Virus record (IMG/VR): IMGVR_UViG_3300006790_000002
Span: 1 to 53,910 of that record
From: a virus
Taxonomy: Duplodnaviria; Caudoviricetes
Strand: one strand, 5' to 3'
Length of the DNA stretch: 53,910 nt
This document shows positions 12,582-45,654 of the stretch, one piece after another. Made by a program: the position numbers and the translations under genes. The first letter of the stretch is position 1; every line of letters starts with the position of its first letter. The notes beneath the pieces were generated by a model, which saw only the letters and a program-made list of their open reading frames with translations, did not search any database and was not told the DNA's origin.

Positions 12582-12805
12582 GACTTCTTCTTGCCTGCGG
12601 CTGCCATCTTCTGGAACTTGGCTTTGCCATACTTCTTCCGGCCGATGGCGGCTGCAACGGCACCCGGATCTTCCGCACCGCTCGCTTCTATGCTCTTCTC
12701 CAGGGCTTTGAAGCGCTTACCCTCTCCGGGCTTCGAGGTCTTCTTGGCTTTCTCGTAGGCTTTTTTCGCGGCTTTCTTCCGCATGTCTTTGAGATTTCCG
12801 GGCAT
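12578..12805 (-). CDS. Small Lys-rich late protein carrying the shared helix tag
   Basis: AGGAG SD; begins MPGNLKDMRKKAAKKAY; last gene of the late block. Confidence 0.8.
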   Translation of the reverse strand: MPGNLKDMRKKAAKKAYEKAKKTSKPGEGKRFKALEKSIEASGAEDPGAVAAAIGRKKYGKAKFQKMAAAGKKKS

Positions 12806-12899
12806 CGTGTTCTCCTAAAAATAGTGGTGGGGGAGGAGAAGAATAAACAGGCACATCTTCTCTAAGGGCCCAACGCCTCATCTCCCCCACCACCCTATC

Positions 12900-13097
12900 T
12901 CATTCGGCTGCTTCTTCTTCGGGCGCTGGTTCTTCAACTGGCTCCGAGACGGGAGCAGCTTCTTCTACTTCTGGAGCAACTTCTTGCTCTTCTCCCAAGA
13001 AGTGGCAGGTGCCCAGGGATGAAGAGACGATGATTGCGCCTCCTGCAAGGGCGACCTTGAGGTTCAGCTTCTCTTTGATTTCTTTCAGTTTGCTCAT
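12900..13097 (-). CDS. Small membrane or lipoprotein-like protein with acidic tail (possible lysis accessory)
   Basis: Basic N-terminus, hydrophobic stretch ending LGTC, Glu/Pro/Ala tail; directly downstream of the endolysin candidate. Confidence 0.55.
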   Translation of the reverse strand: MSKLKEIKEKLNLKVALAGGAIIVSSSLGTCHFLGEEQEVAPEVEEAAPVSEPVEEPAPEEEAAE

Positions 13098-13099
13098 GA

Positions 13100-13693
13100 C
13101 TACCACTCCGTGATGAGGGTGTAAGTGAAGGTAGGTGCCCAGGTGGGGTGAGTTTCGATCTGTTTGTGGCACAAGGCGATCAACTCATCAAAGTCCTTAC
13201 TTCGGGCAAAGACCTGACAACCAGCAGACCACTTATCTACCTGAGTAGAGTTAGCGCCAGCTTTGTGGATGTTGCATCCGAAGAACCCTTCCTGGATAGT
13301 GTCGGGATCCATGTCATGGACGTTGTCTCTATTTCCGTCCCGGTAGACTTGGATCTTCCCGTTTCGTTGGCAAAGAGCCTCGTACTTGCCCGCGTGGAGA
13401 TCTAACTTGTAGACAGATCTGTACTGCCCGGGGACGACGATCGCGGTTCCTGCTTCATTGCCGTAGACTTCTGGATTCTTCAGGCAGAACTCACCGGGGT
13501 CAGTAGTCGCAGCCCAGTACTTCACAGTCCACGGGCCATCCTCTTCCTCACGGTAAGCACAGCAGATGAAGTCGTTGAAGCTATTCCCGTTCTGGTTCGC
13601 CCGGATCCCGATGATGTTCAGGTTGTAGGCGTACCCACCATCGAAGATCCGATAGCCGAACTTCTGGACCTGCTTCAGTAGTTCTGGAATCAT
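13100..13693 (-). CDS. Putative endolysin, L,D-transpeptidase (YkuD)-like Cys/His enzyme
   Basis: LNIIGIR, ATTDPG, PGQY and NIHKAG...WSAGCQV (H-x13-S-x-G-C). Confidence 0.65.
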   Translation of the reverse strand: MIPELLKQVQKFGYRIFDGGYAYNLNIIGIRANQNGNSFNDFICCAYREEEDGPWTVKYWAATTDPGEFCLKNPEVYGNEAGTAIVVPGQYRSVYKLDLHAGKYEALCQRNGKIQVYRDGNRDNVHDMDPDTIQEGFFGCNIHKAGANSTQVDKWSAGCQVFARSKDFDELIALCHKQIETHPTWAPTFTYTLITEW

Positions 13694-13917
13694 CGTGCTT
13701 TGATCTCTTGGACTTTCTGGAACATGAGATCGCATAGAAGGTCAACAGCGAATCCAATGACTCTTTCCTCTTGCCGTTCATTGAGAATCGGGAAGTTGAC
13801 ATGCTCATTGATGAACGTGACAACCCACTTCCGTTTCTTCTTACCCGATCCGGGCTCGGGGAACAGGTCTTCAGCCATCAAGATTGCCTGTTGAAGGATT
13901 TTTCCTCGGTTCTTCAT
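13690..13917 (-). CDS. Small hypothetical protein in the lysis region
   Basis: ATGA overlaps on both sides; AEDLF..GSGKKK pattern resembles the soluble part of LL-H-type holins, but no clear transmembrane helix. Confidence 0.6.
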   Translation of the reverse strand: MKNRGKILQQAILMAEDLFPEPGSGKKKRKWVVTFINEHVNFPILNERQEERVIGFAVDLLCDLMFQKVQEIKAR

Positions 13918-14198
13918 TTCTTCTCCATCTTCTTCTTGGCACTCTCACGAACAGCAGATCTCTTCTTGCCCTCGTGTAGGCCGTGTTTCGCAAACTGTTT
14001 TCCCTGAGAGGTAGCTTCTCGCTTCTTCTTGTTTGCCGCAGCGAGTTTCTTCTTACCTTTCTTGGTAGACTTCAGAGCTTGGATGGTCTTCTTAGGCGCA
14101 TAGACCTCTCCGGTATCCCCGCTCTTCTTGCCCGAGGGGGTGGTCCATTCTTGCTTGGTCCAGGTATCCAGAGACTTTTGGGTCTTAGTCTTCGCCAT
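13914..14198 (-). CDS. Small basic protein (second half of a DUF5872-like family, from recollection)
   Basis: QKSLDTWTKQEW..SG...TGEVY.PKK pattern; TGATG coupling with the upstream gene. Confidence 0.7.
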   Translation of the reverse strand: MAKTKTQKSLDTWTKQEWTTPSGKKSGDTGEVYAPKKTIQALKSTKKGKKKLAAANKKKREATSQGKQFAKHGLHEGKKRSAVRESAKKKMEKK

Positions 14199-14428
14199 CA
14201 GTTCTTGTAGCCTCCGCCCGCTTCTTTGTACTGCTTCGCGAGCATCTGAGCCTTACGGGCAGACCACTGTCCGGGCTTACCGCCCTTACTTCCGGCTTTG
14301 ATCTTCTCAAAAAGACGCTTACGGAGTCCGGGCTTAGTGTAGTTCCCGGACTCATTCACTCGGCTCTCGCCCTTCTTGTAAGCCTTCTTTGCGGCTTTCT
14401 TCCGCATCTTTTTGAGTTTAGTAGGCAT
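14198..14428 (-). CDS. Small basic protein (first half of a DUF5872-like family) with N-terminal helix tag
   Basis: NYTKPGLRKRL..IKAGSKGGKPGQWSARKAQMLAKQYK.AGGGY. Confidence 0.75.
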   Translation of the reverse strand: MPTKLKKMRKKAAKKAYKKGESRVNESGNYTKPGLRKRLFEKIKAGSKGGKPGQWSARKAQMLAKQYKEAGGGYKN

Positions 14429-14687
14429 CTCCGCCCTTCTTCTTGCCCATTGCTTTCTTCGCGGCGTCTTTCCTCATCTTCTTGAGGTCGTAGTCTTTCT
14501 TGCCATTCTTCTTCATAGATTTCATTGCGTTCTCTTTCGCATCGCCAGAGAGTTCTTCCAAGTGAAATAGAGGAACAGACGATTCTGTGTGTGTCTTGCC
14601 CGAGTGGAGACTCCCGTCGGGCATCTTGTGGTACCCGCCCTTGTGGAGAGTTCCGTCTTTCTTGTAATGGGGTACGCCTTCTGCCAT
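14418..14687 (-). CDS. Small His/Lys-rich protein with C-terminal helix tag
   Basis: HYKKDG..HKGGYHKMPDGSLHSGKTH; AGGAG SD. Confidence 0.75.
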   Translation of the reverse strand: MAEGVPHYKKDGTLHKGGYHKMPDGSLHSGKTHTESSVPLFHLEELSGDAKENAMKSMKKNGKKDYDLKKMRKDAAKKAMGKKKGGDAY

Positions 14688-14696
14688 GATCTTCTC

Positions 14697-15005
14697 CTAC
14701 CACTTCACGCGATTTGCCCAGTAAGCTGCGCTCATCTTGCCTTTCTTGATGTTCTTCTGGTGTCGAGACTTGAAGCTCTTACGCTTCTTCTTCATGCGCT
14801 CTGATTCTCCAGCCTTGGGCTTTCCTGCCGTGCTGGCTCCTTGCTCTCCAAAGCGAATCAGTTTGACCTTGTCGCCCTCTTTCGCCATGACCATGTGACT
14901 CTTCTTAGGATGGTCCGGAGTTCTCTTAGGCTTGTTGAAGCCTTTGAGTCCGTGCTTCTTCATGGCATTTCGGGCAGCCTTGAGGCGGCTTTCTTTCATA
15001 CTCAT
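14697..15005 (-). CDS. Small basic protein
   Basis: KKSHMV...KLIRFGEQG...RKSFKSRH...SAAYWANRVKW, a pattern I recall from conserved small viral proteins. Confidence 0.75.
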   Translation of the reverse strand: MSMKESRLKAARNAMKKHGLKGFNKPKRTPDHPKKSHMVMAKEGDKVKLIRFGEQGASTAGKPKAGESERMKKKRKSFKSRHQKNIKKGKMSAAYWANRVKW

Positions 15006-15160
15006 TCGACTGCCTTTAGTACTCGCTCAAAAAGTTCTTCATATTTCCTGGTCATCTTAGTGAGTTGCATGCCCATCTTCTTATTCTGGTAGATGAGGTA
15101 GAAGATAAACATGCCGGTGATACCGAGGTCAATGAGTTGTGCTATGAACTCGGATTCCAC
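15002..15160 (-). CDS. Putative holin-like single-TM protein, 52 aa (not in the ORF track)
   Basis: GTG start after GGAGGT; MESEFIAQLIDLGITGMFIFYLIYQNKKMGMQLTKMTRKYEELFERVLKAVE; ATGA overlap with the next gene. Confidence 0.6.
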   Translation of the reverse strand: MESEFIAQLIDLGITGMFIFYLIYQNKKMGMQLTKMTRKYEELFERVLKAVE

Positions 15161-15352: not shown

Positions 15353-15361
15353 CGTTCACCC

Positions 15362-19142: not shown

Positions 19143-22100
19143 TCATTTGTCGAGGATGCTTCTCATTCCTCTCTGCTCGACCTTGCGCTGGAGCGTTTCT
19201 CCCAGACCCTCGATTCTTCCGCCGCTGTAAGGCTCGAAGGTTGGAGGCGCCGACTTGATGAACTCGGTGAACTCCCTTCGGATGTCCCGCATGCGTCCAT
19301 CTACTTCGTCCTGGATGTTGAATGGAGACTCTCGCATGAAACCAGTCAGTCGCTTGGTTGCAGCGATGAATCCTTTTCGGAATCCCTGTTCCCACTCGGG
19401 AGAGGTGGTTGCTCCAATCCAAGCGGTAGCCTGAGTAGACCCGATCGGAAGCATTCGCCATGCCATGTAAGTGGCAATCGGAACTTGGCTTCGACCAGTT
19501 TCCGGATCTTCTCGAAGCTGGGAGCTTAGGCCCGGGATGGTGCGCCAAACTGTCTCTTCTTCTGGGCTGATGCTCCGGAAAGAGCCTCGCACTTGGTAAT
19601 CCAGATCTGCATTCATCGTAGAGAGCAGGGCACGCATCGACATCTCTAATGGAGGAGAAGCTGCGCCCAAGATTGGCTCGAAGAATCGAGCACCGACATC
19701 TGAAGGAGCGTTGAATCCTGCCCCGAAAGAAGAGGTTCCCGGAAGCTTCCCGAGCATCATGCCGACTCCGGTAAACAAAGCAGTGGTCATGTCAAACATG
19801 TCCATGCCTGTGTGCTGGGGAGCCAAAATCATGGCATGTGTGTAGTCTTTTCCGGTGATCTCTTTGTACCGTTGACGGCGAACTGGATCGAAAGGAATGA
19901 CGCCGAACTTCGGTCGAGTATCTGCCCAGGAGGGATAGAGTTCCCGAGCCACGGCATCCACTTTCTCGTTCATGCTCATGCCTTCGTAAGTGCCATCCTG
20001 GTAGAAGAAGTTTGGCAAGTTCGGGAAGATGAGCAAGTTCTGTCGAAGTCGAGCCAGACGACTGTCGCCCGTCAGGGCTTTACGAGCCAACTCGCTGTTA
20101 TTGCGAACGAAAGGCTCAAGGAGAGTTGAGCCCATCTGCTTCATGGACAGACGGTAGAATCTCCAGAAAGGAACGAAGCGAGTCATGATCATTGCTTCGG
20201 TCTCAGAGATTCCGTGCTTCCAATCATAGAGAGCACGGTCAACTGTCTTCTTGGCTTCCTGGCGACTCATTCCTCGCTGGAGGCTGTCGAGATACAGGCC
20301 CATTCGCTGACGGTCTTGGACCATCGAAGCATGGTTGTAGATCAGTCCCTGCCACTCCTTGAAGAAGTTCGGCATCGACTTCTCACCTTGGGCCGCTGCC
20401 CGGGAGAAGGTGTCGAGGAGTTCTTCGCGAACGAACGTATCGTTGATTCCATCTTCCAGGGCATAGCGACGAGCCTGATCGAAGGTGATCACGTCACCGT
20501 TCTTTGTGATGAACTCTCCCTTCTCGCCTTTGTAGATTCGAGCGAGATGCGGGTTCAAGAACGTGTCTACCATGCCCGGGAGGGCGACTCCCTTTCCAGA
20601 CTTTCCTGCAACTCGCTCCGCCATGAACAGCGTCTTCTCTTGCAGACCTCGTCCGAAGAACGGGATGTTCGTCATTCCGTTGACGAAGCTGAGAGATCCT
20701 GCCCGAGCTATACCAACTTCCTGCCACATCTGCACGAAGTCACCGAACATGTTGTTTGTCCAGTATCGAGGGTTCGGAGCGAGGAGACCCGTAACAGCAG
20801 ATCCTTTCCACAACCGGAGGTAATCATCGACCATACCCAGGGCCGCGTTCTTGCCAGTGACCTGTCTCGGGAACGGATCGAACTCTTTGGCGATTCTTCC
20901 TGCAAGAACATCCAAAGATCGGATCAGGTTCTCAGGAGCATAGCTTCCGGCTCCGATCTCCACGAGTCTCTTCGAGCGAGCTTCTTTGGCGGAAGAGACA
21001 ATCGGTACTCCTCGGGCAGCCTGGAAGTCTTTCTGAGTGAACGGCATACCCAAACGGTTGAGGTTCTGGATTGCCTTGTCGATGTCTCCGACATCCTCAA
21101 AGGACTCTCCTGCCAAGAGACGGTTGATGTCTGCTGCCTCTTCCGGACTGAATGTTCCGAAAGACTTCGCCATACGATTCTTCAGCGTGCTGAGAGTCGC
21201 GGAAGTCACGAGGCCAGAGCTGGCGAATGCGTAAGCACGAGCTACGTCGTACTCGGTGTTGCCGATGATTGCGTAAGTCGCCTTCCGCATCTTCTCGGCA
21301 AAGCCCACGTCGATGACTTCTCCAAGAGTGTTCTTGGTAGGACCAAAGCCCGGAGATTCATCTAAGTACTTCTTCGCAAGTCCCATCAAGAGAGGACCTG
21401 CTTCCTTAGCGACTGCGGTAACTTCGCCTCGTGGAACCCACATACGAGAGACAGATACCAAGCTGATCGGTGCGCCCGTGATTGCAGACACGGGCTTGAA
21501 TCCTTCCTTTGCCATCTCATCTGTTAGACGAGCAACAGCATCTTTCATCTCATCAAGGAACTCTTCAGTGAGTCCTTCTTTGAGTTTGCCTTCTGCCTTT
21601 AGGCTTTCGATCCGAGCAACGAGACCGTCTTCCAGATCTTGAATCTCTTTAGACCTGGAGGCTTCCGCCCGAGCCAGCCGAGCTTGTTCGACCGGATCGA
21701 TTCGAGTGTCTGCCAGGATTCCAAGCTTTCCTTTCTGGTAAGGAGTGCCCATGCCACTGGCGACTGACCAGCGGGAAGGACCAGTAGGAAGCTGAAGATC
21801 TCCCTGGAAGTCCAGGATTCCAAGAAGCTTCTCCTCCGCAGTCTCACCAAAGCCATCGGCCTTGGCCCACTGGAGAAGTTCTTGTTTGCCCTCTGCGAGC
21901 AGGAGTTCTGTCTGCTTGAATGCCTCTTCGAGTTGATCGCCTACCAGTCCGATTCGGTCTTCGATGTTGAAGCCCGGGATCATGCCAGAGGCTTCCTGGA
22001 ATCCATTCGACATGCTCCGAAGGGTACCTCCAGCAAACCTTCGAATCAGAGACTTGCTGCTCTTCTTCTCGATGCCGATGTCTCGCCAAGCTTCGTTGAC

Positions 22101-25100: not shown

Positions 25101-25244
25101 AGCCAAAGCAGCACCCCGGTCCTGGACCGCAGGAGGCTGCGGAGCCTGGAACGAGATGGTCTCTTCTTCCTGTTCCTGGGACTCAGGCGTCTCCTCTTCT
25201 TGATCTTCGAGGAGTACAGAAGTTTGCTGCTCTGGAGTTGCCAT
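19143..25244 (-). CDS. Large internal virion (ejection) protein, 2033 aa
   Basis: Largest ORF, last of three ejection-like genes after the nozzle; helical/coiled-coil; C-terminal RY.TNN..GD...W and FVPFWRF patterns typical of podovirus internal proteins. Confidence 0.7.
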   Translation of the reverse strand: MATPEQQTSVLLEDQEEETPESQEQEEETISFQAPQPPAVQDRGAALAGEDIDPAAYLGYDARSAIRDRSPVVQQQIDISRAKRRAGPARAQQRGTEFYAPLRQTVGTTPVPLDRPWSTREEQERESPDVYLDSNDPPEGWQPSPIEVNRLVTEGLLSPEEAGDVNTVWRAGRASARNQGGASWFGQKTIEGEVARELSPESAIQKAMVSQIPLNSREIRGDIVLDTHKMFRQTREYWKTQFTEDLLREGRSPSDLSPEEAEELNKLIDQRALNSMGVFMNSGGRMFYTDAFDRDITKDIADAAFGTKFIRAIAAPTTYGRIGAQVPGSGYGAQASRLNPVVNPVTMSSEGLLSRFGRFAPSTFFTPKIFGGHEIGSEEWVEAIRAGDEITEHIGDIARRIDGVEPGGETSTFAKTVAGVGVLSLIVLEPDIVTLLTLPASGPVKAAKLAQAGRRTRRAANRLRELQQEFDDGLSMAKAQRALDDYDRALMLAVNTPAITRFQQMSATRRASGSGMKGYDDMYETAGAAREEAERLRKELDEFAESATTAEQKAMVELQEARVAEHELWAAYTERELVEGEKNLFLEALGLSPEDAAKIRTERGVPIDERAARQLERAASLAKKQEKAIRNSKEYNKLLSDYDKKANELGEIFNTLQEGFLGIEEAQRKGGGLRVGWEVLSTKGNRLSRAVTETSEPFSIPIYGQKVRLPTPAGGSVIRTVEGIRIRGPKSGRLSKGNDNQIVLQVKGKSGEIEEYVHPYRLPENAARNIRSKIKEFEEMHKVVAAEGGLMEQIVELRRIQDLGKERAAHLRLGGAADRVKRFQRAEEKLAEASKKYKEATKAAGVSQKDFDKLSRKFAKKGEEVFKAEQKASQRALMREIYAKSIDDVASGLENLHKAGLENLGVVGFKTPKQIAKSMKAIADSDWNALRSFGTKLDEGQVARAYRNLMKSATKLIPGRRGEQATLQVDADKLMKGLASELGGPKNLAEITKASPPLRKLLERVKTEGSDISLDLREASALQEEIQSLIRTGQAQRLFTDDVAWGRAVNEAWRDIGIEKKSSKSLIRRFAGGTLRSMSNGFQEASGMIPGFNIEDRIGLVGDQLEEAFKQTELLLAEGKQELLQWAKADGFGETAEEKLLGILDFQGDLQLPTGPSRWSVASGMGTPYQKGKLGILADTRIDPVEQARLARAEASRSKEIQDLEDGLVARIESLKAEGKLKEGLTEEFLDEMKDAVARLTDEMAKEGFKPVSAITGAPISLVSVSRMWVPRGEVTAVAKEAGPLLMGLAKKYLDESPGFGPTKNTLGEVIDVGFAEKMRKATYAIIGNTEYDVARAYAFASSGLVTSATLSTLKNRMAKSFGTFSPEEAADINRLLAGESFEDVGDIDKAIQNLNRLGMPFTQKDFQAARGVPIVSSAKEARSKRLVEIGAGSYAPENLIRSLDVLAGRIAKEFDPFPRQVTGKNAALGMVDDYLRLWKGSAVTGLLAPNPRYWTNNMFGDFVQMWQEVGIARAGSLSFVNGMTNIPFFGRGLQEKTLFMAERVAGKSGKGVALPGMVDTFLNPHLARIYKGEKGEFITKNGDVITFDQARRYALEDGINDTFVREELLDTFSRAAAQGEKSMPNFFKEWQGLIYNHASMVQDRQRMGLYLDSLQRGMSRQEAKKTVDRALYDWKHGISETEAMIMTRFVPFWRFYRLSMKQMGSTLLEPFVRNNSELARKALTGDSRLARLRQNLLIFPNLPNFFYQDGTYEGMSMNEKVDAVARELYPSWADTRPKFGVIPFDPVRRQRYKEITGKDYTHAMILAPQHTGMDMFDMTTALFTGVGMMLGKLPGTSSFGAGFNAPSDVGARFFEPILGAASPPLEMSMRALLSTMNADLDYQVRGSFRSISPEEETVWRTIPGLSSQLREDPETGRSQVPIATYMAWRMLPIGSTQATAWIGATTSPEWEQGFRKGFIAATKRLTGFMRESPFNIQDEVDGRMRDIRREFTEFIKSAPPTFEPYSGGRIEGLGETLQRKVEQRGMRSILDK

Positions 25245-28842: not shown

Positions 28843-28851
28843 GAGAAACTC

Positions 28852-29586: not shown

Positions 29587-29594
29587 AGATCCTC

Positions 29595-30308: not shown

Positions 30309-30309
30309 G

Positions 30310-35676: not shown

Positions 35677-36756
35677 TTATGGGGTAGCGCCGCCGGTAAC
35701 GACACCGTTAGCACGAAGCTGGTCACAGTACATTCCCATGTTGAGGACGTACTCGTAACGCCACATGTCCTGCTCGGGGATACGAATAGGACCGCGAACG
35801 GCGAAGTCGCCCTTGGTCTCCATGTTCGAATCGTGTCCGAGGGTGTACATGTGCCAAGTATCGGTCTTCATCATGTAGACGACGCCGTTGTTGGCTCCAC
35901 CAGTGCTGAACTGAGTGAGGTCGATGGACTGCTCAAGGAAGAAGTCTGCCTCAAGGAAGGGGATTCCCTGACGAAGTTGCTTCGGAGCCTTGTCGCCCTC
36001 AACTCGCATCACGCGAACCTGATCGTCGAGATCCTCGATGTAGTTGAGGTACGAGCCCTCATCACCGAGAAGCAGATCGACAGGACCGCTGGCCTTGGAT
36101 CCCTGACGGGAAGCCTGGTAGTAGACCTGACGCATGGTCGAACGACCATCGGTAGCGAAGGACGAGATCTGACCGTACTGGTTGTACCAACCCGTGGTGG
36201 TTCCCTTGTTCAGACCGAAGATGCTGTTAGCAGCAGCAACCTGGGCAGCCTGGGTCAGGAACTCGAAAGCACCGGTACGAGCAGCAGCGAGGCCGGGGTT
36301 GTAGGTTGAATCACCGTTCAGGGTGAGGAAACCACCAACGCCCGTTCCGTTTCCGGATCCAAGCTGATCAGCAATACGCTCGTGGAAGTCGGACAGAGCC
36401 AACTCGGGGTACGCCTTGATGATCTTGGCCAGATCGTTCTCGCCATTGGCCTCTGCGAGGTCCTTGCCGGGGACGTCAAACGCGTAGATCAGGCGGGGAG
36501 CATAGGAGCTTCCGCGCTGGGCAGATTGGGTACGACCACCAGCGATCACTTCGGATCCAGTGGTAACTTGGGTGACGGTTCCAGGACCGCCGGAAACAAC
36601 CACAAACTCGCGATACGGGCCCTTGAGTGTAGCTCGGTCCACGTTGCCCCGCTTCACAACCCGCTCCATGAGGGGATGCCAGAGGGAGAACAGTTCCGAG
36701 TACCCAGGAGCAAGATCTTGCAGTGCGGTTGCGACTACATCAGGACTGATTGCCAT
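35677..36756 (-). CDS. Major capsid protein (HK97 fold expected)
   Basis: 359 aa between scaffold and decoration genes; GAGG SD; C-terminal MGMYCDQLRANGVVTG. Confidence 0.82.
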   Translation of the reverse strand: MAISPDVVATALQDLAPGYSELFSLWHPLMERVVKRGNVDRATLKGPYREFVVVSGGPGTVTQVTTGSEVIAGGRTQSAQRGSSYAPRLIYAFDVPGKDLAEANGENDLAKIIKAYPELALSDFHERIADQLGSGNGTGVGGFLTLNGDSTYNPGLAAARTGAFEFLTQAAQVAAANSIFGLNKGTTTGWYNQYGQISSFATDGRSTMRQVYYQASRQGSKASGPVDLLLGDEGSYLNYIEDLDDQVRVMRVEGDKAPKQLRQGIPFLEADFFLEQSIDLTQFSTGGANNGVVYMMKTDTWHMYTLGHDSNMETKGDFAVRGPIRIPEQDMWRYEYVLNMGMYCDQLRANGVVTGGATP

Positions 36757-36801: not shown

Positions 36802-37743
36802 CTATCTCCTGCCCCCACCATGCACAGAGAATGCACGACGAGCAGCAAGAAGTCTCATTTCATCTAACGAACCGCTATCATTGATCGACTTTTTGGCAAC
36901 TTGAGGCCGGGACGATCGAGTAGCACCGTTCGTAATCTTAGCTCCTGCGCGAGGAGCCTTTGCCTTAGCTTCGGCCTTTGCTTGGGCTTCTGCCGCAGCA
37001 ATCTCTTCAGGAGTAGGACCGGTGGGTTGGGCTCTGACTTCTTCAAGCTCGGCGTGTGCCTTCGCCAACTTGAGTGCATATTGGTCTGAGACACCATCCG
37101 TTTTCGCTTGGATAGCAATCTCGACCGCTGATTCTGGCAGATCGATCAACTCAGCAGCAACGTAGGCATCCCACATTCCGCCATGAGTGTCGTCCTCTGC
37201 CAGGAACTCTGCAAACACTGACAACTTCTCTTTGTTCTCAGCAAGATCTGCGTGGTCTTTCCAGAATCGATCAACGTACTCTCCGACAGCTTGTTCTTCT
37301 GTCGTAGCCATTGTCTTTTCAAGATCAGAATAAGCAAGGTTGCGCTCGTCGAGTTGGCGCTGGAGATCCTCAAGCTGTGAGGTCATCTGCCCGATGCGAG
37401 GATCTTCGTCTTCCGAAAGCATTGCAGCGTACATTGAACGAAGCGTTGCAATCTCTTCTGCCTTTTCGGCGTAGCTCTTCTCGTAGTAGTCAGACACACC
37501 TTGGGCAGTTGTCCGATAGCTCTCAGGAAGAGAGTCAATCGTTCCGTCCCAAGAGTTCCACTCAACTTCCGGGAACGGGTCGTCTGCCCGAGTGGGTGCA
37601 GGGGCGCCTGCGGGGACTGCCGCTGCTCCCCCACCCGAAGAACTTGCTTGCTCCGCCGGGGCCTGGGAGGGCTCCGGTGAAGCAGCGACAGCCGTCTCTG
37701 CGACGGGTGCGGCTGCTGCTGGTGCTGCGACTTCTTCGCTCAC
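36802..37743 (-). CDS. Capsid scaffolding protein
   Basis: Acidic disordered N-terminus, central coiled coil, basic C-terminal helix; directly upstream of the major capsid gene. Confidence 0.75.
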   Translation of the reverse strand: MSEEVAAPAAAAPVAETAVAASPEPSQAPAEQASSSGGGAAAVPAGAPAPTRADDPFPEVEWNSWDGTIDSLPESYRTTAQGVSDYYEKSYAEKAEEIATLRSMYAAMLSEDEDPRIGQMTSQLEDLQRQLDERNLAYSDLEKTMATTEEQAVGEYVDRFWKDHADLAENKEKLSVFAEFLAEDDTHGGMWDAYVAAELIDLPESAVEIAIQAKTDGVSDQYALKLAKAHAELEEVRAQPTGPTPEEIAAAEAQAKAEAKAKAPRAGAKITNGATRSSRPQVAKKSINDSGSLDEMRLLAARRAFSVHGGGRR

Positions 37744-38093
37744 ATTCCTTCCATTGCTTTAGAGGCGGCGTTGTTCCGCATAGAAACGAGATCCATGACC
37801 ATTGGGGGCTCTTCGGCTCCCATCATGTCCTCCATTCCCATCTCCATCTCGCCGTCTTTCTTCTTCAACTCGTAGCCGTACTCGTCAAACCAAGCCATGA
37901 GCTTATCTGGATCGGCGCCATGCTCTTTGATGGCAGCAGCCATAGCTTCTGTGGGAGAGGCAAAATCAGTGCTCTCCTCAACTTCGATATCCACGTCAAT
38001 GTCGGGCTTGTCAGCAGACTCCTCTTCGGGAGCCTCCTCTTCCATCATGCCCTCTTCCTCTTCTTCCATGAACGCGGGTTTATCTTCAGCCAT
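37740..38093 (-). CDS. Small very acidic Met/Glu-rich protein with C-terminal helix tag
   Basis: GGAG SD; ends DLVSMRNNAASKAMEGM. Confidence 0.7.
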   Translation of the reverse strand: MAEDKPAFMEEEEEGMMEEEAPEEESADKPDIDVDIEVEESTDFASPTEAMAAAIKEHGADPDKLMAWFDEYGYELKKKDGEMEMGMEDMMGAEEPPMVMDLVSMRNNAASKAMEGM

Positions 38094-38173
38094 GAGATTC
38101 TCCAAATGTGCTCAGGTTTTACCTGAGCCGGATACGATAGTCAAGAAAAGCATATTCTGGTAAGAAGCTTTAT

Positions 38174-38605
38174 TCAAGTCGTGACCTGGATCTTAGTTTC
38201 GCCGTTCTTGAGCGCTTTCTTGTGAGCGTTTACTTTCCGAGTGTGATTTTTGCGATCCTCGAAATCTCGGAATCCAAGTTTCTTGGCTGTTCGGTCTGCT
38301 TGGTTGCGAACTGAATCGTAGTGGTTGATCCACTTGGGGTCATCTTTACTGACGATCTCACGATCTTTGCGGCGGCTAAAGTACGCCCGCTCTTCTTCCG
38401 GAGAGGAGAAGTTCTGCCCGATCTGGTCGATATGCAGAGTCTTGGAGGGCATTGGTCCGACAATCGCAGGTGCCTTTCGAATCAGTGTTGTGGCTTTCTC
38501 ATTGCACACCGGACAATAGAGACCGTCTTGCTTGAGATACTCACTCGCCTTCATCATGTCTTCGAACTCGCCGCACGAGTCACATCGTCCGTTGTATGTA
38601 GGCAT
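38174..38605 (-). CDS. FmdB-like zinc-ribbon protein
   Basis: MPTY..RCDSCG...CPVC. Confidence 0.75.
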   Translation of the reverse strand: MPTYNGRCDSCGEFEDMMKASEYLKQDGLYCPVCNEKATTLIRKAPAIVGPMPSKTLHIDQIGQNFSSPEEERAYFSRRKDREIVSKDDPKWINHYDSVRNQADRTAKKLGFRDFEDRKNHTRKVNAHKKALKNGETKIQVTT

Positions 38606-40458
38606 TACTGATTCCTTGGAATGTTTGGATCGAGATCAAACGGAGCGCCACCGAATCCAGTCAGAGGACTGGCCTCTCCACCACCCGGGCCAAAGCCTGC
38701 GGGATTGGGAGGAAGCATCGGCTCAGTCTCAGGGGGCAGAGCACCACTTGCAATGGTGTCTTGTCCACCGGGAGCGGGAGGCTGCGCTAAACTCGCTTGC
38801 GCCTGGGCGGCCTGCTGCTGCGCTTGGGCAGCTTCTTGTTCAAGCTGCTCTGAACTCTTGAGGACATCCTGCATCTGTAGTAGCTCGCAGAGCTTACGAA
38901 TGAGGGTGTTCTGATCAACCTGTGAGTTCTCTTGGAGAAGCGGGAAGAACTGCTGCAAGTTCCTAAGTTGGACCAGCCGGTTGTTTTCGGTGGGAGCGTA
39001 TGGAACAGCTTCATAGTCATACTCCAAAGGTTCCTCGCCGCGACTTGCGAGAATCTCGCGAGCCATCATAGATGCCCGGGTGATCTCGACGACTTCTGCA
39101 TTAGGCAGCATGCGAACAGGAAGAATCTCGTCGTCTGCGAGAAACTCCTCGTAGAGCCCGATGATGGTTTGTGATTGCCAACCGATCAGGTCGTAGATTT
39201 CTTTCTGCCGACGACCGTTGCGAGTCCTTGTCGCAGTATCTGCGAGGGCGACTTCAGTTGCCACGTCAGACACACCGACCACTCCCCGAGAGTATTGTGG
39301 AATACCCAAGATAAACTCGATGATCTGGATGCATCGGTCTCGGGTAGCGATGAACTCCGGCGAGAGGCTTGGGGTTTGGGTGTGTCCGATGATGTCCTGG
39401 ATCGAGGCATTTGCTTTTCCTGCCACCTCTACGATTGAGCCCGGAGAGGTTGCGGTACGCAGTTGATTGCGAATGTGCTCGGGATTGTCTACCAGCCCGG
39501 AGTTGAGCATGGTGATCGGAATCGCCGTCTGGGCAAACCAGAGCATCAGCGTGTCCAACTCATTCAAGCGCTCAAGGATTGGCTGGATCAGAGTCACGTC
39601 ACTCAGACCGCCGATGTCCTGCAAGTTGTCGTTGAACGACAGACGGTAGAAAGGATTGCGAGCGAATCGGTAGGGAAGCTCGCCAGCAAACAACGGCTCC
39701 TCCTGCTCTTCCAGGTAGTGGTAGTAGCGACCTTCGCCCGAGAAGTCGTAGATCTCATAGACCGTGACCCACTCGAACACCTCTTTGGAAGAGTCGTTCA
39801 TGAGGGACTGATCTTTCAGACGGTCTCGCAGCCACTCTGGATAGGCACCGAACTGGGCCTTCTCCGCGACTTCTGGATCGTAGGGACGGTCACTCTTGTT
39901 TCCTTTGCCCTTGATGCGGGCATTGAAATCCTCCCGAGTGAGAACCGTGACTTCAATCAGATACCGAATGTCCTCCCAACGCTCGGCAGCGAGATCAAAC
40001 CAAACATGACGGAGATCCACAACAAGGAAGTCGGGAGAGCGTTTACGAAAGTTCCAAACCACTTTGACGAAAGAACGTGGGTAGACGCTCGCCATCGTAG
40101 CTGCTCGCCATAGAATCCGATGAATGCCCGAACGACGGAAGGTGTCATTGATCAGTGCCTCTCGATATTTTGCAGGCTCGTGAAGGTGCTTGCGTCGTGC
40201 GTTGACAGTAACTTCTGGATTGTTCGGACAGATGTTCGCGACCATCGTGTCCACGAATGCATAAGGGTAGTTGGTCTCCAGAGACAAATCGTCCGTGGAG
40301 TCCGCAGGACTTCCAGCACCCTGGGGAAGATCTTGGGTGTAGCTGCTTGACGCATCACTCGTGTACCAGCAGCGGACCTTGTCCCACTCTCGCTGGTCAA
40401 TGAAAGACCGACTCTTGTGGGTATCAATCAGTCCCATCATTTGTTTCTTGGTCAACAT
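38605..40458 (-). CDS. Portal protein
   Basis: 617 aa downstream of the terminase; NY....VDT...I....P, PF...F......GLSD...I.P...LNE and ATEV motifs; Gln/Pro-rich C-terminal tail. Confidence 0.85.
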   Translation of the reverse strand: MLTKKQMMGLIDTHKSRSFIDQREWDKVRCWYTSDASSSYTQDLPQGAGSPADSTDDLSLETNYPYAFVDTMVANICPNNPEVTVNARRKHLHEPAKYREALINDTFRRSGIHRILWRAATMASVYPRSFVKVVWNFRKRSPDFLVVDLRHVWFDLAAERWEDIRYLIEVTVLTREDFNARIKGKGNKSDRPYDPEVAEKAQFGAYPEWLRDRLKDQSLMNDSSKEVFEWVTVYEIYDFSGEGRYYHYLEEQEEPLFAGELPYRFARNPFYRLSFNDNLQDIGGLSDVTLIQPILERLNELDTLMLWFAQTAIPITMLNSGLVDNPEHIRNQLRTATSPGSIVEVAGKANASIQDIIGHTQTPSLSPEFIATRDRCIQIIEFILGIPQYSRGVVGVSDVATEVALADTATRTRNGRRQKEIYDLIGWQSQTIIGLYEEFLADDEILPVRMLPNAEVVEITRASMMAREILASRGEEPLEYDYEAVPYAPTENNRLVQLRNLQQFFPLLQENSQVDQNTLIRKLCELLQMQDVLKSSEQLEQEAAQAQQQAAQAQASLAQPPAPGGQDTIASGALPPETEPMLPPNPAGFGPGGGEASPLTGFGGAPFDLDPNIPRNQ

Positions 40459-40703: not shown

Positions 40704-40932
40704 CGAACTCAAAGACCTCTTTTAGAGTGATACCCGTGCTCGCCTGGATTGGGCCCAGGGTGATGAGCGAAAACAACTCTTCAATAACAGGTCCGACTTC
40801 GGCCCAGTCCATTTGGACACTTCCATACTGGGCAAAGAAGCTCATCGGAATCGTGAGCTTCAATCCGGGAGCGAGATCTACGACCGCAGTATCGCGAGCC
40901 GGATCTCGATAGATCTCAGGTGCCTGTGTCAT
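40690..40932 (-). CDS. Small hypothetical protein, 80 aa
   Basis: ATGA overlap with the terminase stop. Confidence 0.6.
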   Translation of the reverse strand: MTQAPEIYRDPARDTAVVDLAPGLKLTIPMSFFAQYGSVQMDWAEVGPVIEELFSLITLGPIQASTGITLKEVFEFDGSR

Positions 40933-42632
40933 CTTTTTCTCCTCCGAACCGATCTATATGTTGGGCGAGATCGAGTCGGCGCTTTGTCTTCTACGAGCTT
41001 CTTACGATATCGCTCTTGATCATCGTAACTCATCCCGGTGAACATGAGGAGATTCGTTTCTTGTACTCTCGCTCCGGGCTTATCGCGGACTGGCAGGTAA
41101 CGAGCACCGACAACCGCCATCAGCAGAGCCGAAACCTTATCCCAGTGGTGCCGATCCCGTCTTCTGCCCGAGGATGAACCTCTAAGAATCTCTGAGGCAG
41201 CCGATTCCTCGGTGCGTTTGTCATTCTTGTACGTTTGTAGCTGTTGGAGCGTATCTCGGTCGTTCAGGACCAACTCATCCATCAATCCGTCAATCAGCCA
41301 GCCAGTTGCTTGGTCAAGAGACTTGGATGTGCTGGTAAAGCCCGGTTTGAACTTGGCTTCGTAGTAGAGGTTCGAATAATCGCGGTCATTCAGCAGAGCG
41401 AGGACGGATTGCCCGACACCATTGGACTCAACGCAGATCAGAGCCTTGTTGTACCGGTTTGCCACCCGGAGAAGCTGATTTGTGAAGGACAATGGGTCCA
41501 TGTGCTCCGCGAAACACGCAACTTGTGTCCATTCGCCGCGCCAACACTTCAAAACCTGGAAAGCAGCGTGGTCTCGGGCCGCATATCCACTCGGATCGAC
41601 TCCAATCGCGTAAATCGCGCCCTCTTGAGGCGGTTCGTACTCCTGATAAGGCCCAGTCCAGGGCTCAAGCTCCCGATTCATGCTCTTTTTGAGCGCATGT
41701 TCGGGAATCGCAGCGTTTGTGGACGCAATCCAGCAAGAAATGTCGTCGAACGGGTACATCACGCCGAACATTTCGGGATTTCGCCGGACTTCAGGGTCCG
41801 TATCCATGATGAATCGCCGGAATGTGAGGTTATCCGTCGTCAAACCCTGGGATCCGTAGCGATTTAGGAGGTCAATCTCCTGATTCGTGGGCACAAAGTC
41901 CTTCGGAGTGGCACGAGCGTTCAGTTTTCCATCCCAAAACGGAAAAAATACCGCTTTGTGGCGACCCGCGCCCTTTTTCGCCATGACATAGTGCTCGTGC
42001 CAGGCGCAGTTACGCTCCCAGGGAGTTGCCTCATAGATGACGAGGGCGTTCTGCCTGTTGATGAGCGACGGATTGATGAGAAACATCGATCCGTTGAAGT
42101 CTGACCAAAGATGGCACTCGGAAGCATGGAAAGAATCAGGAGACTGCCCAACGCCAACCGCGCCCGATTCTGCCGACAAGACACGCATTTTGCCGCCTTG
42201 TAGGGGATCAAAGGTAAGCTGACGACTCTCACGAGTCGCGAGGGTCTTTGACCGTAGCTGTTCTGGCCACCGTTGGTGTAGATGATGAACCCTCTTGTGG
42301 AGGTAGTCGGCCCTGTCCCTATTGTCTGCGATGCAGACATGGTCCCAGCCCGGGATGTAGGCAGCTTTGCAGTAAGCCGCGTACTCGCTGGTCAGGGATT
42401 TACCAGCCTGACGGTAGGCAAGCAAAGTCAAAAACTGAGTTTCGCCTGAAGGGAGCCTGGGAGGGTTCGACATGTAGTCGAGCACAACCGACTGTAATGT
42501 ATGGGTTATTCGAGTCGGATCGAACTTAGCGAATCGACCAGTCTTCTGGTCATGCACTTCGCCAAATGCAGGAAGAGCGTGCGCCGGAGAACGGAGCGTG
42601 TTGAGTAGCTGCGCTGCCGATGCTTGACTCAT
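40929..42632 (-). CDS. terL: Terminase large subunit
   Basis: Walker A YRQAGKS, Walker B FHASE, coupling motif YEATP, RNase H-like IGVDPS, VESNGVG, HWDKVSAL. Confidence 0.92.
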   Translation of the reverse strand: MSQASAAQLLNTLRSPAHALPAFGEVHDQKTGRFAKFDPTRITHTLQSVVLDYMSNPPRLPSGETQFLTLLAYRQAGKSLTSEYAAYCKAAYIPGWDHVCIADNRDRADYLHKRVHHLHQRWPEQLRSKTLATRESRQLTFDPLQGGKMRVLSAESGAVGVGQSPDSFHASECHLWSDFNGSMFLINPSLINRQNALVIYEATPWERNCAWHEHYVMAKKGAGRHKAVFFPFWDGKLNARATPKDFVPTNQEIDLLNRYGSQGLTTDNLTFRRFIMDTDPEVRRNPEMFGVMYPFDDISCWIASTNAAIPEHALKKSMNRELEPWTGPYQEYEPPQEGAIYAIGVDPSGYAARDHAAFQVLKCWRGEWTQVACFAEHMDPLSFTNQLLRVANRYNKALICVESNGVGQSVLALLNDRDYSNLYYEAKFKPGFTSTSKSLDQATGWLIDGLMDELVLNDRDTLQQLQTYKNDKRTEESAASEILRGSSSGRRRDRHHWDKVSALLMAVVGARYLPVRDKPGARVQETNLLMFTGMSYDDQERYRKKLVEDKAPTRSRPTYRSVRRRKR

Positions 42633-45007
42633 AGGTTCTCTTCGTCTCTTTCTCGACTACTCATCAACGCTCTCCGGGCCGCATTCTCTCTAAGTCGGGC
42701 AGGAGCAGTTGTCGGTTGAGCGAGGATTTCTTGGAGTTCTCGATCAAACTCCTGCATCTCGGGCATGTCATCAAGGCCCTGGACACTTGGATCGAGACCT
42801 ACTCCACGAGTCTCCTCTCGCTCTCCTCGAAGAGCACGGCCTCCCCTCTGTAGAGCACGACCTCCTGCTGCGAGCAGTTCAGCGCCGGGATGCACTCCGC
42901 GCTCTCCATAGCCTGGGAGGGTTTGTGCGAGCATTTGAGGAACTTCAAGCAACTCGCCGGTCTCTTTGGCTACTGTTCCACCATAGCGTTGAGTTCCTTC
43001 CAACAGGCCATGGCGTCCGATCTCGCCAGCAAGACGGCCACCCTCGTAGGCAGTTCCTGCAACACCCGCGAGATACCCCAACCTTGCGAGAGCAGCTTTT
43101 GCCCTTGCGAGCTTTGAGGCTACTTGCCTCGCCTCTGGTGTGCCCGGGTCTGCGGCTGCGAGTTGCTGTTCAGCATCCTGAATCTCCTTTTGGATTCTTT
43201 GGATCCTCTCCTGCTCCTGCATGGACTCTATGTACTCTTCGCCCATTGGCGCTGGAGTCCTTGCGGGTGCTGAAGCCTTTCGGGATCGCCGCACCTCTGC
43301 GAGTTCGGCTTGTGCTTCTTCGAGTTGTCTGCGGACCCTTTGCTGATACTCTTCGTCGCCACCTCCGTGCTTTAGGTTGTACTTTGCTATAAGAATCTGC
43401 TCTTTGAGTTCTTCTATCTTGGTCGCTTCAGGAACAGGGGCCAGGGAGGGATGGAAGTTCCGCCTTTCGAGTTGCTCATTGTAAGAACCGGGGGCATACG
43501 GGTCGTCAAAATCTGGACGCTGACGCACTCGCTCGATCTCAACATCCAGCTCTTCTCGTGAGATTCGAGGAGAATCGACGTATCTCCCAAACGCCTGGTG
43601 GATGCCCATTGGTTCGTCAGTGTCGATACGAAAGTTTGGATCCGTATGAAGCTTGATCTCTTCTGTCAGACCCTCAAGGATGTTATTCCGAGTTCGGGCT
43701 CGAAGCTCGTTTGCCTCCATAGAATCATGTGCTCTGTCAATGAGGTATGGAAGCTCCTCGTCCGTTACTCGTCTTGGAATGTTCTCGCCGCTCGGAATGT
43801 TTCGACTTACTTGTCGGACTTGTTCATCAGAAACACCCTCTGGTTGCAGCAACACTTTTCCTGCGGGATCAAACAGAGGGAGATTCATTTCTTCTGCCAG
43901 AATCACTGCTGTCCTTTCCGGCATTTTTTGAAGTTGTCGAAACCGAGGGGCTTCTTCCAGATTGGGTCTTGCGGTGACTATTGTGTCGAAGTCATTTCGA
44001 CTGTGCTGATACGGGTCAACCACGATTCCTACGATGCGAGGCTTTTGGATGAGGGCCTCATTATGGCCCGGCTGCCCCGCATACGGTCTCCACTGGTAGA
44101 GTTCCCCACTCGCGCCCATCTCTTCGAGGATCTCCTCAGATCCTTCGAACGAGTGTTGTCTCCTGAACTCTGCCCTCCGGGCATCCGTCATAAAGGTGTC
44201 TTCATCGAGAACTGGATCCATTAGCGCTGTAGTCATCGATTGGGGACTACCCGTGTAGGAGTTGATGTCCATGTTAGCGATGAACGACGGCTCTCCTTCA
44301 AGGATAAAACCGACTTCGAGACCACCCCCGAGAATCCTCTGAAAAAGGGTGCCCATGCCACTCGGGTCGTCTCTCAGATAGGCTGATGCGGAAAGGGCAC
44401 CATCAACTACACCTCTGGGACTTGCAGCAAGAGGGATTGGGTCGGCTGTCCAGTGGACAAATGAGAGCTTGTCTAAGAACTCAGGATCAACATTCTTCTT
44501 CCAAGCGTTCACTGCCTGTGAACTGCCGGGAGCACTCTCGCGATGGAATCCAGTCGTGTCCGCTTGTGGTACTCCCAAAGGTTGCCGAACTTCATCTGCG
44601 TATGCTGCGAGACGAGGACTCTGGATCGCTTGAGAATAATGGACTGCTGCATCTATTCGCTGGTTTGCTGCTTGGGCGGCCCGTACACGTTCTTTAAGCT
44701 CTTTACGAGCGATCACCGCCTCACGATTCGACTCATCGACGGGCAACTTCAAGTATCCGGCAAGATCTTCGGGATCCCCTATGATTGCGCCCATCTGCAC
44801 TGGATCGGACAGGACTTGCTGGAAAGACTGACCCGTAGCCTCAGAATACATCTTGAGCGTGTTCAGGACTTCCTTGTAGGCAGCAGAGCCCGGGAGAAGA
44901 ACGATTCCGGCCCTCTCCAGTACTTTCTGGAATCTGCTCTCCTCGTCCCTCGCCATTGCCCTTTCAGCGGCTTCTCGGCGCATCGTCGCTCTTCGATCTT
45001 CTGCCAC
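42629..45007 (-). CDS. 792-aa protein with two copies of the helix tag and a candidate ADP-ribosyltransferase-like domain
   Basis: FVHW (H185), LSASAY (S206/S208), VGFILEG, HNEAL (E317) then IVGIVV; coiled coil and Gly-rich amphipathic C-terminal part. CDS is solid, function is inferred. Confidence 0.6.
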   Translation of the reverse strand: MAEDRRATMRREAAERAMARDEESRFQKVLERAGIVLLPGSAAYKEVLNTLKMYSEATGQSFQQVLSDPVQMGAIIGDPEDLAGYLKLPVDESNREAVIARKELKERVRAAQAANQRIDAAVHYSQAIQSPRLAAYADEVRQPLGVPQADTTGFHRESAPGSSQAVNAWKKNVDPEFLDKLSFVHWTADPIPLAASPRGVVDGALSASAYLRDDPSGMGTLFQRILGGGLEVGFILEGEPSFIANMDINSYTGSPQSMTTALMDPVLDEDTFMTDARRAEFRRQHSFEGSEEILEEMGASGELYQWRPYAGQPGHNEALIQKPRIVGIVVDPYQHSRNDFDTIVTARPNLEEAPRFRQLQKMPERTAVILAEEMNLPLFDPAGKVLLQPEGVSDEQVRQVSRNIPSGENIPRRVTDEELPYLIDRAHDSMEANELRARTRNNILEGLTEEIKLHTDPNFRIDTDEPMGIHQAFGRYVDSPRISREELDVEIERVRQRPDFDDPYAPGSYNEQLERRNFHPSLAPVPEATKIEELKEQILIAKYNLKHGGGDEEYQQRVRRQLEEAQAELAEVRRSRKASAPARTPAPMGEEYIESMQEQERIQRIQKEIQDAEQQLAAADPGTPEARQVASKLARAKAALARLGYLAGVAGTAYEGGRLAGEIGRHGLLEGTQRYGGTVAKETGELLEVPQMLAQTLPGYGERGVHPGAELLAAGGRALQRGGRALRGEREETRGVGLDPSVQGLDDMPEMQEFDRELQEILAQPTTAPARLRENAARRALMSSRERDEENL

Positions 45008-45009
45008 AA

Positions 45010-45654
45010 CTACTCTCCAGTTCTCCGACGGATGATCTCTTCGAAGTACGGCGTCGTCATCAGCCCACGACGCTCTTCGGAAGTAAGCTGACGAGGCGGA
45101 TAGTCTATCTCACGCGAGAGCCGTTCCTGCTCCTCCGAACGTGACTTAATCCGAGGATCACGCATCGCCCGCTCCATCTCAGCCCGGGAGGTCTGGAGAC
45201 TCCTCCGTGTTTCAGGAACAGTATCGGGCTTTTCAGCAGAAGCCGGTTCACGCGACATTCGTGTGAGATCATCAATGCGACTTGTGATAGATTGCTGCTC
45301 TTCCGGAGTGTAACCTCGACCTTCCCTCCGAGCGGTTTCCCCGTACTTCTCGTTCATTCTGTTAACATCGTCATACCCACCCATGATTGCTTCATGTTGT
45401 TTCCTCTCTGCGCGGATGCCTGCGTACCGGGGGTCGGGTACGTCTTTTGGCTCGGAAGGCCCCAGGGGTTTCAGTGCAGGACCAGTGGTAGGAGTGGCGC
45501 CGATCAGTCGATTCGGCTCGTCAAACTGCCGTCGGGCTGCTTCCCTTCGAAGAGCGGCTCGGGCTCCTACAAGGTCAGGATTCCGGGCTTGAGCAGACTC
45601 CGCAGTTAGTGGTTCTCTTGTGTACATTCTTCTTCTTCGATCCTGATCGGCCAT
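45010..45654 (-). CDS. Charged helical hypothetical protein with helix tag
   Basis: GGAG SD; ALRREAARRQF at residues 34-44. Confidence 0.7.
   Translation of the reverse strand: MADQDRRRRMYTREPLTAESAQARNPDLVGARAALRREAARRQFDEPNRLIGATPTTGPALKPLGPSEPKDVPDPRYAGIRAERKQHEAIMGGYDDVNRMNEKYGETARREGRGYTPEEQQSITSRIDDLTRMSREPASAEKPDTVPETRRSLQTSRAEMERAMRDPRIKSRSEEQERLSREIDYPPRQLTSEERRGLMTTPYFEEIIRRRTGE

Follow-up and report, generated by a model that had tools for sequence, protein, structure and literature searches.

The window analysed here, the whole of a virus record of 53,910 bases (IMG/VR record IMGVR_UViG_3300006790_000002), encodes a phage scaffolding protein with a short C-terminal helix that recurs near the ends of other late proteins. 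The first-pass annotation of this DNA, made from the sequence alone, had proposed that at least seven unrelated late proteins bear the helix as a terminal tag that addresses them to the lumen of the procapsid. Judged on sequence, seven tags borne by six proteins, together with the scaffold, form a firm set, and we put at roughly 55% the probability that the tag is a shared procapsid-binding helix by which these late proteins are loaded into the assembling capsid. The conservation of the motif, its position at protein termini, its location on the late strand, its modularity, the tethered helix that it forms in the scaffold and a weak docking result all fit a shared procapsid-binding label. The cargo-loading proposal is thus supported in part. 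Several different proteins do carry the tag, although their independence was slightly overstated, as two of the tags share DNA, and two of the instances originally named, in proteins of 214 and 94 residues, proved weak.

The nine peptides on which the proposal was founded each translate exactly as reported, on the minus strand and at the coordinates below. They sit close to the termini of real-looking open reading frames (ORFs) and, as had been stated, are found in strongly acidic as well as strongly basic proteins. The carriers, weak instances included, are listed one per line.

36802–37743, minus strand: scaffolding protein, 313 residues; helix SLDEMRLLAARRAF at 36829–36870 (residues 292–305), followed by SVHGGGRR.
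37740–38105, minus strand: acidic pre-scaffold protein, 121 residues; C-terminal tag DLVSMRNNAASKAM at 37752–37793.
42629–45007, minus strand: 792-residue protein tagged at both termini, RRATMRREAAERAM at 44954–44995 and APARLRENAARRAL at 42665–42706.
45010–45654, minus strand: 214-residue protein; degenerate motif ARAALRREAARRQF at 45523–45564, residue 35.
12578–12805, minus strand: 75-residue lysine-rich protein; N-terminal tag NLKDMRKKAAKKAY at 12755–12796, residue 8.
14198–14428, minus strand: 76-residue basic protein (phrog_17747); N-terminal tag KLKKMRKKAAKKAY at 14378–14419, residue 8.
14418–14687, minus strand: 89-residue basic protein; C-terminal tag DLKKMRKDAAKKAM at 14448–14489, residue 71.
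14697–15005, minus strand: 102-residue basic protein (phrog_7595); N-terminal tag-like helix SMKESRLKAARNAM at 14961–15002, residue 6.
13914–14198, minus strand: 94-residue basic protein (phrog_14910); weak C-terminal extension SAVRESAKKKMEKK.

The pattern put forward in the first-pass annotation, [LM]RxxAAxxA[MYFL], finds seven matches in a hand-curated set of 57 window proteins (17,328 residues); when each protein was shuffled 300 times, the mean was 0.043 and no shuffle gave more than 1. Relaxed so as to include the peptides of the 102- and 214-residue proteins, the pattern finds nine, against 0.063 in shuffles. No plus-strand gene among the 57 contains a match, in agreement with the earlier observation that early and replication genes lack the motif. 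As the pattern was defined after the fact, a test was built without any non-scaffold peptide, consisting of a profile and a weight matrix derived from 39 unique scaffold tails of the clade, that of the window among them. With this scaffold-only matrix six non-scaffold window peptides score at least 10 bits, compared with 0.61 per shuffled proteome; they belong to the 102-residue protein (19.1 bits), the 75-residue protein (16.0), the C-terminal end of the 792-residue protein (14.3), the 89- and 76-residue proteins (11.1 each) and the 121-residue protein (10.1). The next-best score, 9.7 bits, comes from an internal stretch of an early helicase and is no better than chance. The 792-residue protein has an N-terminal tag that fits the pattern but does not score with the matrix.

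The same bias is seen across the clade. Relatives were gathered by a scan with the major capsid protein (MCP), giving 78 IMG/VR loci of 53–95% MCP identity, and ten whole records (G001–G010) were included. In six complete genomes there are 22 strict matches to the motif, against a shuffle mean of 0.42 (maximum 2 in 200 shuffles); all 22 lie on the late strand, which encodes 70,235 residues compared with 33,090 for the early strand, and all 22 are at most 40 residues from a terminus. When 2,436 six-frame ORFs from six complete genomes were searched, the scaffold-only profile returned 12 matches of at least 8 bits, and none in reversed or in shuffled sequences; the 12 comprise the six scaffolds, five late-strand proteins that are not scaffolds and one match on the other strand that is probably spurious. 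Over all fetched DNA, 118 unique motif contexts fall on the strand of the capsid gene, as against 6 on the opposite strand, for comparable amounts of ORF sequence. The non-scaffold unique tags on the capsid-gene strand number 96, and 81 of these are at most 40 residues from a protein terminus (44 on the N-terminal side, 37 on the C-terminal side). Many tagged ORFs of relatives have no BLAST similarity to window proteins and carry the motif at residue 7–12 or near the C-terminus; they mostly lie between terminase, portal and scaffold, and gene maps of the window and its relatives show tagged genes flanking the large terminase. The number of tags varies even among close relatives, with nine motifs in the window and three strict-pattern matches, one of them internal, in G006, which has 91% MCP identity.

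The instances conform to the consensus h-x-x-[ML]-R-x-x-A-A-x-x-A-[LFM], where h is hydrophobic, a stretch of ~14 residues with one invariant arginine. Positions −4 and −1 from the arginine are mostly L, M or I, though unconstrained in the search pattern, and these conserved hydrophobic residues place positions i, i+3, i+4, i+7 and i+8 on one face of a helix. The motif is best explained as a portable amphipathic helix, one face of which presents hydrophobic and alanine residues. A membrane-binding helix, a Tat signal and a degradation tag were also considered and were set aside in view of the alanine-rich face and the absence of the motif from early genes.

The scaffold copy of the helix stands in the head module, the other main genes of which are as follows.

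35677–36756, minus strand: MCP, 359 residues, the proposed receptor (phrog_9953, E 3.7e-8).
38605–40458, minus strand: portal protein, 617 residues, which provides context and is an alternative receptor (phrog_332 and phrog_156).
40929–42632, minus strand: large terminase (TerL), 567 residues (phrog_2).

On the minus strand the portal gene (38605–40458) is followed by two small ORFs, the scaffold (36802–37743) and the MCP (35677–36756), and the order is the same in relatives. The gene calls are supported by these data or compatible with them, the MCP through phrog_9953 and the portal and TerL through their PHROG matches. The scaffold matched no Pfam or PHROG scaffold family, yielding just sub-threshold coiled-coil matches; its assignment is supported by, or at least compatible with, its position between portal and MCP and its all-helical model. 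That AlphaFold2 model, built from a 46-row alignment, has a mean predicted local distance difference test score (pLDDT) of 78.5 and contains a long hairpin-like pair of helices (residues 74–163), a segment below pLDDT 50, predicted to be disordered, at residues 272–282, and a lone helix at 293–308 that covers the motif. The model thus agrees with the elongated helical form of such scaffolds, in which a flexible linker separates the final helix from the rest. Among 77 homologues the scaffold tail retains the relaxed form R..[AV][AS]..A[h] in 76 and the strict form R..AA..A[h] in 52. The syntenic pre-scaffold gene of relatives has a strict C-terminal tag in 33 of 76 cases and the AAxxA[h] core in 55 of 76, and in some clades its tail also possesses the KHxGG piece of the scaffold. 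In the most divergent locus (L072, MCP 53% identical) the scaffold ends in MRQIVARSWR and the pre-scaffold protein in MREKIKSTIH, and ASTV replaces ATAL in the N-arm of the MCP; no other locus departs from the clade consensus in all three at once, which makes this a single hint of co-variation (n=1).

The first-pass annotation had suggested that each peptide be docked to the MCP in search of a shared pocket on its inner surface. The AlphaFold2 model of the MCP (pLDDT 58, predicted template modelling score 0.60) contains an N-terminal helix at residues 5–26 and a spine helix at 105–134, and in a fold search its best PDB matches were all HK97-fold capsids or encapsulins, although these matches were weak and none reached E ≤ 0.001. 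One tag was docked, the query consisting of the MCP (57-row alignment) and residues 82–121 of the pre-scaffold protein (29-row alignment). The complex scored 0.58 (0.57, 0.58 and 0.58), while the best of three controls scored 0.00; contact agreement between runs was at least 76% and the partner pLDDT was at least 55. The score passes a mark that 58 of 80 solved complexes also attain, as do 2 of 110 mismatched pairs, but among mark-reaching scores of up to 0.60 there are only 7 of the 80 solved complexes together with both mismatches. The check thus lends the proposal weak support and yields no interface. This prediction somewhat raises the odds that the MCP is the receptor and is silent on the site, for which the N-arm helix (residues 5–26, inside 36679–36756) is the best candidate. 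Conservation of the N-arm was considered as a sign of a site with multiple partners (87% over the first 20 residues versus 77% overall) and was discarded, since other segments are equally high.

In the mechanism that we propose, the scaffold would hold the coat protein through a helix at its C-terminal end, behind a flexible linker, and the same helix would be borne on short flexible tethers, at the N- or C-terminus, by a set of late proteins that changes across the clade. The carriers would include the acidic protein upstream of the scaffold, large proteins adjoining the terminase, some of them double-tagged, and several small basic proteins. During procapsid assembly the tag helices would occupy the same kind of inner-face site on the MCP as the scaffold tail, and the tagged proteins would be built into the procapsid lumen. 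We infer from this scheme binding to the MCP, for which the in silico support is weak, at a site common with the scaffold, followed by retention in the virion and delivery to the host.

The small basic carriers illustrate how the tag comes and goes. The 75-residue protein has homologues in two loci (L034 and L073) and in G004 that are encoded in the head module, away from the lysis genes, and retain an N-terminal VRKKAAEKAM. The tag of the 76-residue protein is kept in G007 (97% identity), truncated in G010 and absent from all six locus homologues and from G004 and G009, all of which start at about residue 20. The DNA encoding the tags of the 75-residue (12737–12815) and 76-residue (14360–14438) proteins is nearly identical over ~45 nucleotides, so the two tags are not independent inventions; outside the tag the two proteins have different or no family matches. 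These sequences suggest that a tag cassette has been copied within the genome. The tag of the 89-residue protein is retained in G007 (SLKEMRNDAAKNAM) and G010 (NLKEMREKAAKKAM) at a protein identity of ~64–65%. In the 102-residue protein the R..AA..A[MI] form is found only in the window, G007 and G010, and the N-terminal helix of more distant homologues differs. The C-terminal AVRESAKKKM of the 94-residue protein, which the first-pass annotation had already called weaker, is an extension that, among the homologues seen, is shared by the nearest relative (G007) only, and is not a firm tag; six locus homologues, and those in G010, G004 and G009, end before it. A 101-residue basic protein of G009 has the N-terminal motif KRTAAARKAL followed by the stretch KAKVK.TASGK.VSYGQAGKAKDG; judged by eye, a like stretch is present in an 84-residue ORF of the cultured Roseobacter phage CRP-7 that begins without a tag. 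On sequence evidence, the tag behaves as a module that is gained and lost on homologous proteins.

Among tagged proteins of relatives, a 122-residue protein of G002 (25736–26104, equivalent to L084:6736–7104, minus strand) adjoins the portal gene, carries the tag MRNGAARSAL at residue 33 and matches the HNH family of Pfam just below the cut-off (E 5.9e-4) and endonuclease VII in PHROGs (E 1.3e-8). With the exception of this HNH/endonuclease VII-like protein, searches of ten tagged proteins of relatives against Pfam and PHROGs returned nothing, and the same two databases gave nothing for most of the window carriers.

The large carriers are encoded next to the terminase. In the 792-residue protein the motifs begin at residues 9 and 772, and a full-length homologue in L011 (43% identity) retains both tagged ends; other large proteins occupying the same slot in relatives display N- and/or C-terminal tag variants. 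No family was found for the 792-residue protein in Pfam, PHROGs or the ESM Atlas, and an ESM Atlas search with this and the 121-residue protein gave no usable lead, all scores being below 0.9. The start of the ORF (44983–45007, minus strand) is uncertain, as the longest frame opens with GTG and the database record begins at residue 9 with ATG; the latter start would put MRREAAERAM at the very N-terminus. The peptide of the neighbouring 214-residue protein has Q for the third Ala and scores 3.7 bits with the scaffold-tail matrix, and is thus weak; none of the 78 loci contains a homologue of the protein.

It is possible, and we advance it tentatively, that the tag amounts to an evolvable address-label system, in which the coat-binding helix of the scaffold, as a portable cassette that could be joined to either terminus of nearly any protein, loads fast-changing effectors for co-injection with the DNA. 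Among these effectors would be small basic proteins as well as domains that are combined in giant polyvalent proteins by other phages, and gain or loss of the label on homologous proteins would re-assort the injected arsenal. The domain of the 102-residue protein recurs in 512 longer proteins (E ≤ 1e-5). In two of six that were fetched, both large and multidomain, it is C-terminal and stands behind Zeta_toxin, accompanied by DUF6782 in P0051 and by DUF5872 in P0115, both DUF matches being below the curated cut-off. The domain is therefore of the polyvalent type, in that it is fused to domains typical of polyvalent proteins; this holds for the 102-residue protein only.

Several observations weigh against a cargo-loading label, beginning with the weakness of two of the listed instances, namely the peptide of the 214-residue protein and the extension of the 94-residue protein. 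Of the 96 unique tags, 15 are internal, over 40 residues away from either terminus. Homologous small proteins in relatives carry no tag, showing that it is dispensable for those proteins, and the HNH/endonuclease VII-like carrier of G002 might have a role in packaging without being cargo. A further conserved piece, xVHxGGRR, is present in the scaffold tail without counterpart in most other tags, and the binding of the scaffold may in consequence differ from that of the tags. On inspection the tags do not clearly co-vary with the scaffold tail; clades in which the scaffold reads LRxxVARxAL keep pre-scaffold tags of the AAKKAL type, and the pre-scaffold tail has become VVEKLG in L007, L011 and L015 with the scaffold tail unchanged. 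The docking is weak and without an interface. Finally, a search of 50,697 GenBank phage records for a cultured relative whose virion proteome might place the tagged proteins in particles found none.

The tag could be a procapsid label with another receptor, such as the scaffold core, the portal or, by self-pairing as an alanine zipper, the tag itself, in which case the carriers would join the assembly core, like the internal proteins of T4, with no contact to the coat protein. We regard this as unlikely. The alanine-rich face, with A at +3, +4 and +7, suits helix–helix packing, self-association included, and the genes with tags flank those of the portal and terminase. The capsid targeting sequence of T4 is a precedent for targeting to the capsid without a claim of coat binding (PMC9024508). 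Against a different receptor, the scaffold copy is placed where the scaffolds of other phages bind coat, and although MCP docking is weak, the single complex run, which was with the MCP, reached the mark while controls remained at 0.00.

Coat binding by the helix would not in itself make the carriers cargo. They may instead be helper or competing scaffolds, or assembly regulators, that exit with the scaffold, as might be expected of a pre-scaffold gene that is syntenic with the scaffold in 76 loci and that, in some clades, has the KHxGG piece in common with it. The double-tagged 792-residue protein could likewise cross-link coat subunits, and CpmB is a mimic of a scaffold tail that is not itself cargo but alters assembly (PMC5644958). 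As assembly factors, however, small basic proteins and a polyvalent-type domain would be odd, and the tagged set differs among close relatives (nine in the window, three in G006), which is unexpected for core assembly parts; a helper role for the carriers is decidedly unlikely.

A function unrelated to the capsid, with the scaffold merely sharing a helix that binds a host factor or nucleic acid or that acts as a processing or turnover signal, is improbable. Several of the very basic carriers could bind DNA, one carrier is nuclease-like and most belong to no known family, but the motif is found in acidic and basic proteins alike, is in none of the early-strand genes and is centred on the head-assembly module. 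In addition, no prohead protease was detected among the window proteins searched, which did not include all small ORFs. That the instances have no common function, and reflect an Ala/Lys/Arg-rich helical composition plus a few local duplications, can be given almost no credence, for although the pattern is post hoc, two tags share DNA and some instances are degenerate, composition-keeping shuffles yield far fewer matches (0.043 versus 7, 0.42 versus 22), the scaffold-only profile finds other carriers, the strand and terminus biases are strong and conservation extends over MCP identities of 53–95%.

The closest worked example of a shared procapsid-binding helix is phage 80alpha and its parasite SaPI1. 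In PMC5644958 the C-terminal helix-and-hook of the 80alpha scaffold, which contains an RIIK motif, is described as binding beside the N-arm helix of the coat protein, and SaPI1 CpmB as copying it and making the same contacts. The two systems are alike in that the scaffold ends in a short amphipathic helix with an important arginine and in that the scaffold tail is copied by otherwise unrelated protein. They differ in that the 80alpha mimic comes from a phage parasite and alters capsid size, whereas here many proteins of the phage itself are involved, at either terminus, and the tagged set varies between relatives. There is no sequence similarity between RIIK and RxxAAxxA[LFM], and the 80alpha binding derives from cryo-electron microscopy and genetics while the present one is weakly predicted.

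In T4 the targeting signal acts through the scaffolding core and is removed by the prohead protease. According to PMC9024508, short terminal signals of T4 internal proteins and of P1 DarB suffice to send phage or foreign proteins into the head, and the cargo consists of small basic internal proteins and anti-defence proteins that are delivered with the DNA. A short terminal peptide serving as a head address is what is proposed here also. The T4 and P1 signals are N-terminal only and are not copies of a scaffold tail, in contrast to the 44 N-side and 37 C-side tags among the 96 in this clade. The tags thus depart from the T4-type arrangement of an N-terminal-only peptide combined with a prohead protease, and no such protease was found among the window proteins searched.

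The P22 scaffold binds coat through a C-terminal helical element, a helix-turn-helix, and scaffold fragments have been used to load enzymes into P22 shells; no natural P22 cargo is known to carry the coat-binding element of the scaffold. The tags described here would do in nature what this engineered loading by scaffold fusion does. No homology was detected, the window scaffold having no Pfam match beyond weak coiled-coil ones. Encapsulins also use short terminal peptides to dock cargo on the inner face of an HK97-fold shell. Their cargo peptides are extended and not helical. Encapsulin shells lack a portal, scaffold and DNA, whereas the window encodes a portal, a terminase and a scaffold, so the likeness is in logic only. 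A paper on the evolution of encapsulins and procapsids goes no further than a general comparison between cargo and scaffold proteins (PMC13669383).

Polyvalent proteins are, in the study by Iyer et al. (2017; PMC5512222), predicted to be injected with phage DNA. The domain of the window's 102-residue protein ends large proteins of this kind together with Zeta_toxin, DUF5872 and DUF6782 (the DUFs sub-threshold). In the window, unlike in those proteins, the domain stands alone as a small protein and bears a tag-like helix; for polyvalent proteins, too, packaging is largely predicted. In the openly available full texts searched on capsid targeting, scaffold tails, cargo and ejection proteins, no paper described the natural reuse by a phage of its own scaffold tail as a general label.

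How tailed phages select the proteins that enter the head is known for few model phages, the literature searched covering the signals of T4 and P1 and the ejection proteins of P22. What would be new, if the cargo-loading reading is correct, is that a phage's own scaffold tail is reused, at either terminus, on many phage proteins with turnover between relatives. It would supply a simple sequence rule by which packaged, and probably injected, proteins could be predicted from metagenomic phage genomes, and would make a set of dark-matter genes testable. The tag would also be the natural counterpart, in a real virus, of the engineered P22 scaffold fusions and of encapsulin targeting peptides, and would provide a 14-residue label for loading capsid-like particles. 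As the motif is short and conserved, with one invariant arginine, the hypothesis can be tested with few constructs.

The remainder of the window conforms to a phage that is podovirus-like and belongs to a marine, uncultured lineage. Its further features are listed below.

355–12581, plus strand: replication genes, encoding a primase/helicase, a second helicase, an exonuclease, a Sak4-like annealing protein and a DNA polymerase.
47041 down to 12578, minus strand: long late-gene block.
Late block, minus strand: ORFs of 298 and 163 residues.
38174–38605, minus strand: 143-residue zinc-ribbon protein, between the portal and pre-scaffold genes (PF09723, E 3.5e-6, below the curated cut-off).
Late block, minus strand: tail and internal-virion-like proteins, one of 2,033 residues, and holin-like small ORFs.
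15005–13914, minus strand: cluster of small basic proteins.
13100–13735, minus strand: endolysin-like protein.

The match of the zinc-ribbon protein (38174–38605) is N-terminal, its homologues are 76 locus ORFs, and it has no tag. The 2,033-residue late protein (19143–25244, minus strand) is kept in relatives at 24–33% identity and has no firm tag; its sole family signal is a sub-threshold match to Phage_T7_Capsid assembly over residues 816–923 (E 0.0054). Four consecutive minus-strand ORFs at 28081–31017, encoding proteins of 253, 244, 237 and 235 residues, each have homologues of ~30% identity in relatives, and the two that were searched, of the four, gave no family match. There are no tRNA genes in the window.

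A DNA search and tblastn with the MCP and portal against 50,697 GenBank phage records gave no match, and this absence of a match to the capsid region, MCP or portal places the phage in an uncultured lineage. The best TerL match is to Roseobacter phage CRP-7, at 23% identity, and the protein ends of 28 CRP-7 coding sequences around the head module, when inspected, contained no tag. CRP-7 possesses a run of small lysine-rich ORFs (L095:2940–3586, plus strand) directly upstream of the terminase and after holin-like genes, which resemble in style the small basic proteins of the window but are without the tag. Small basic late proteins may thus be common in marine podoviruses.

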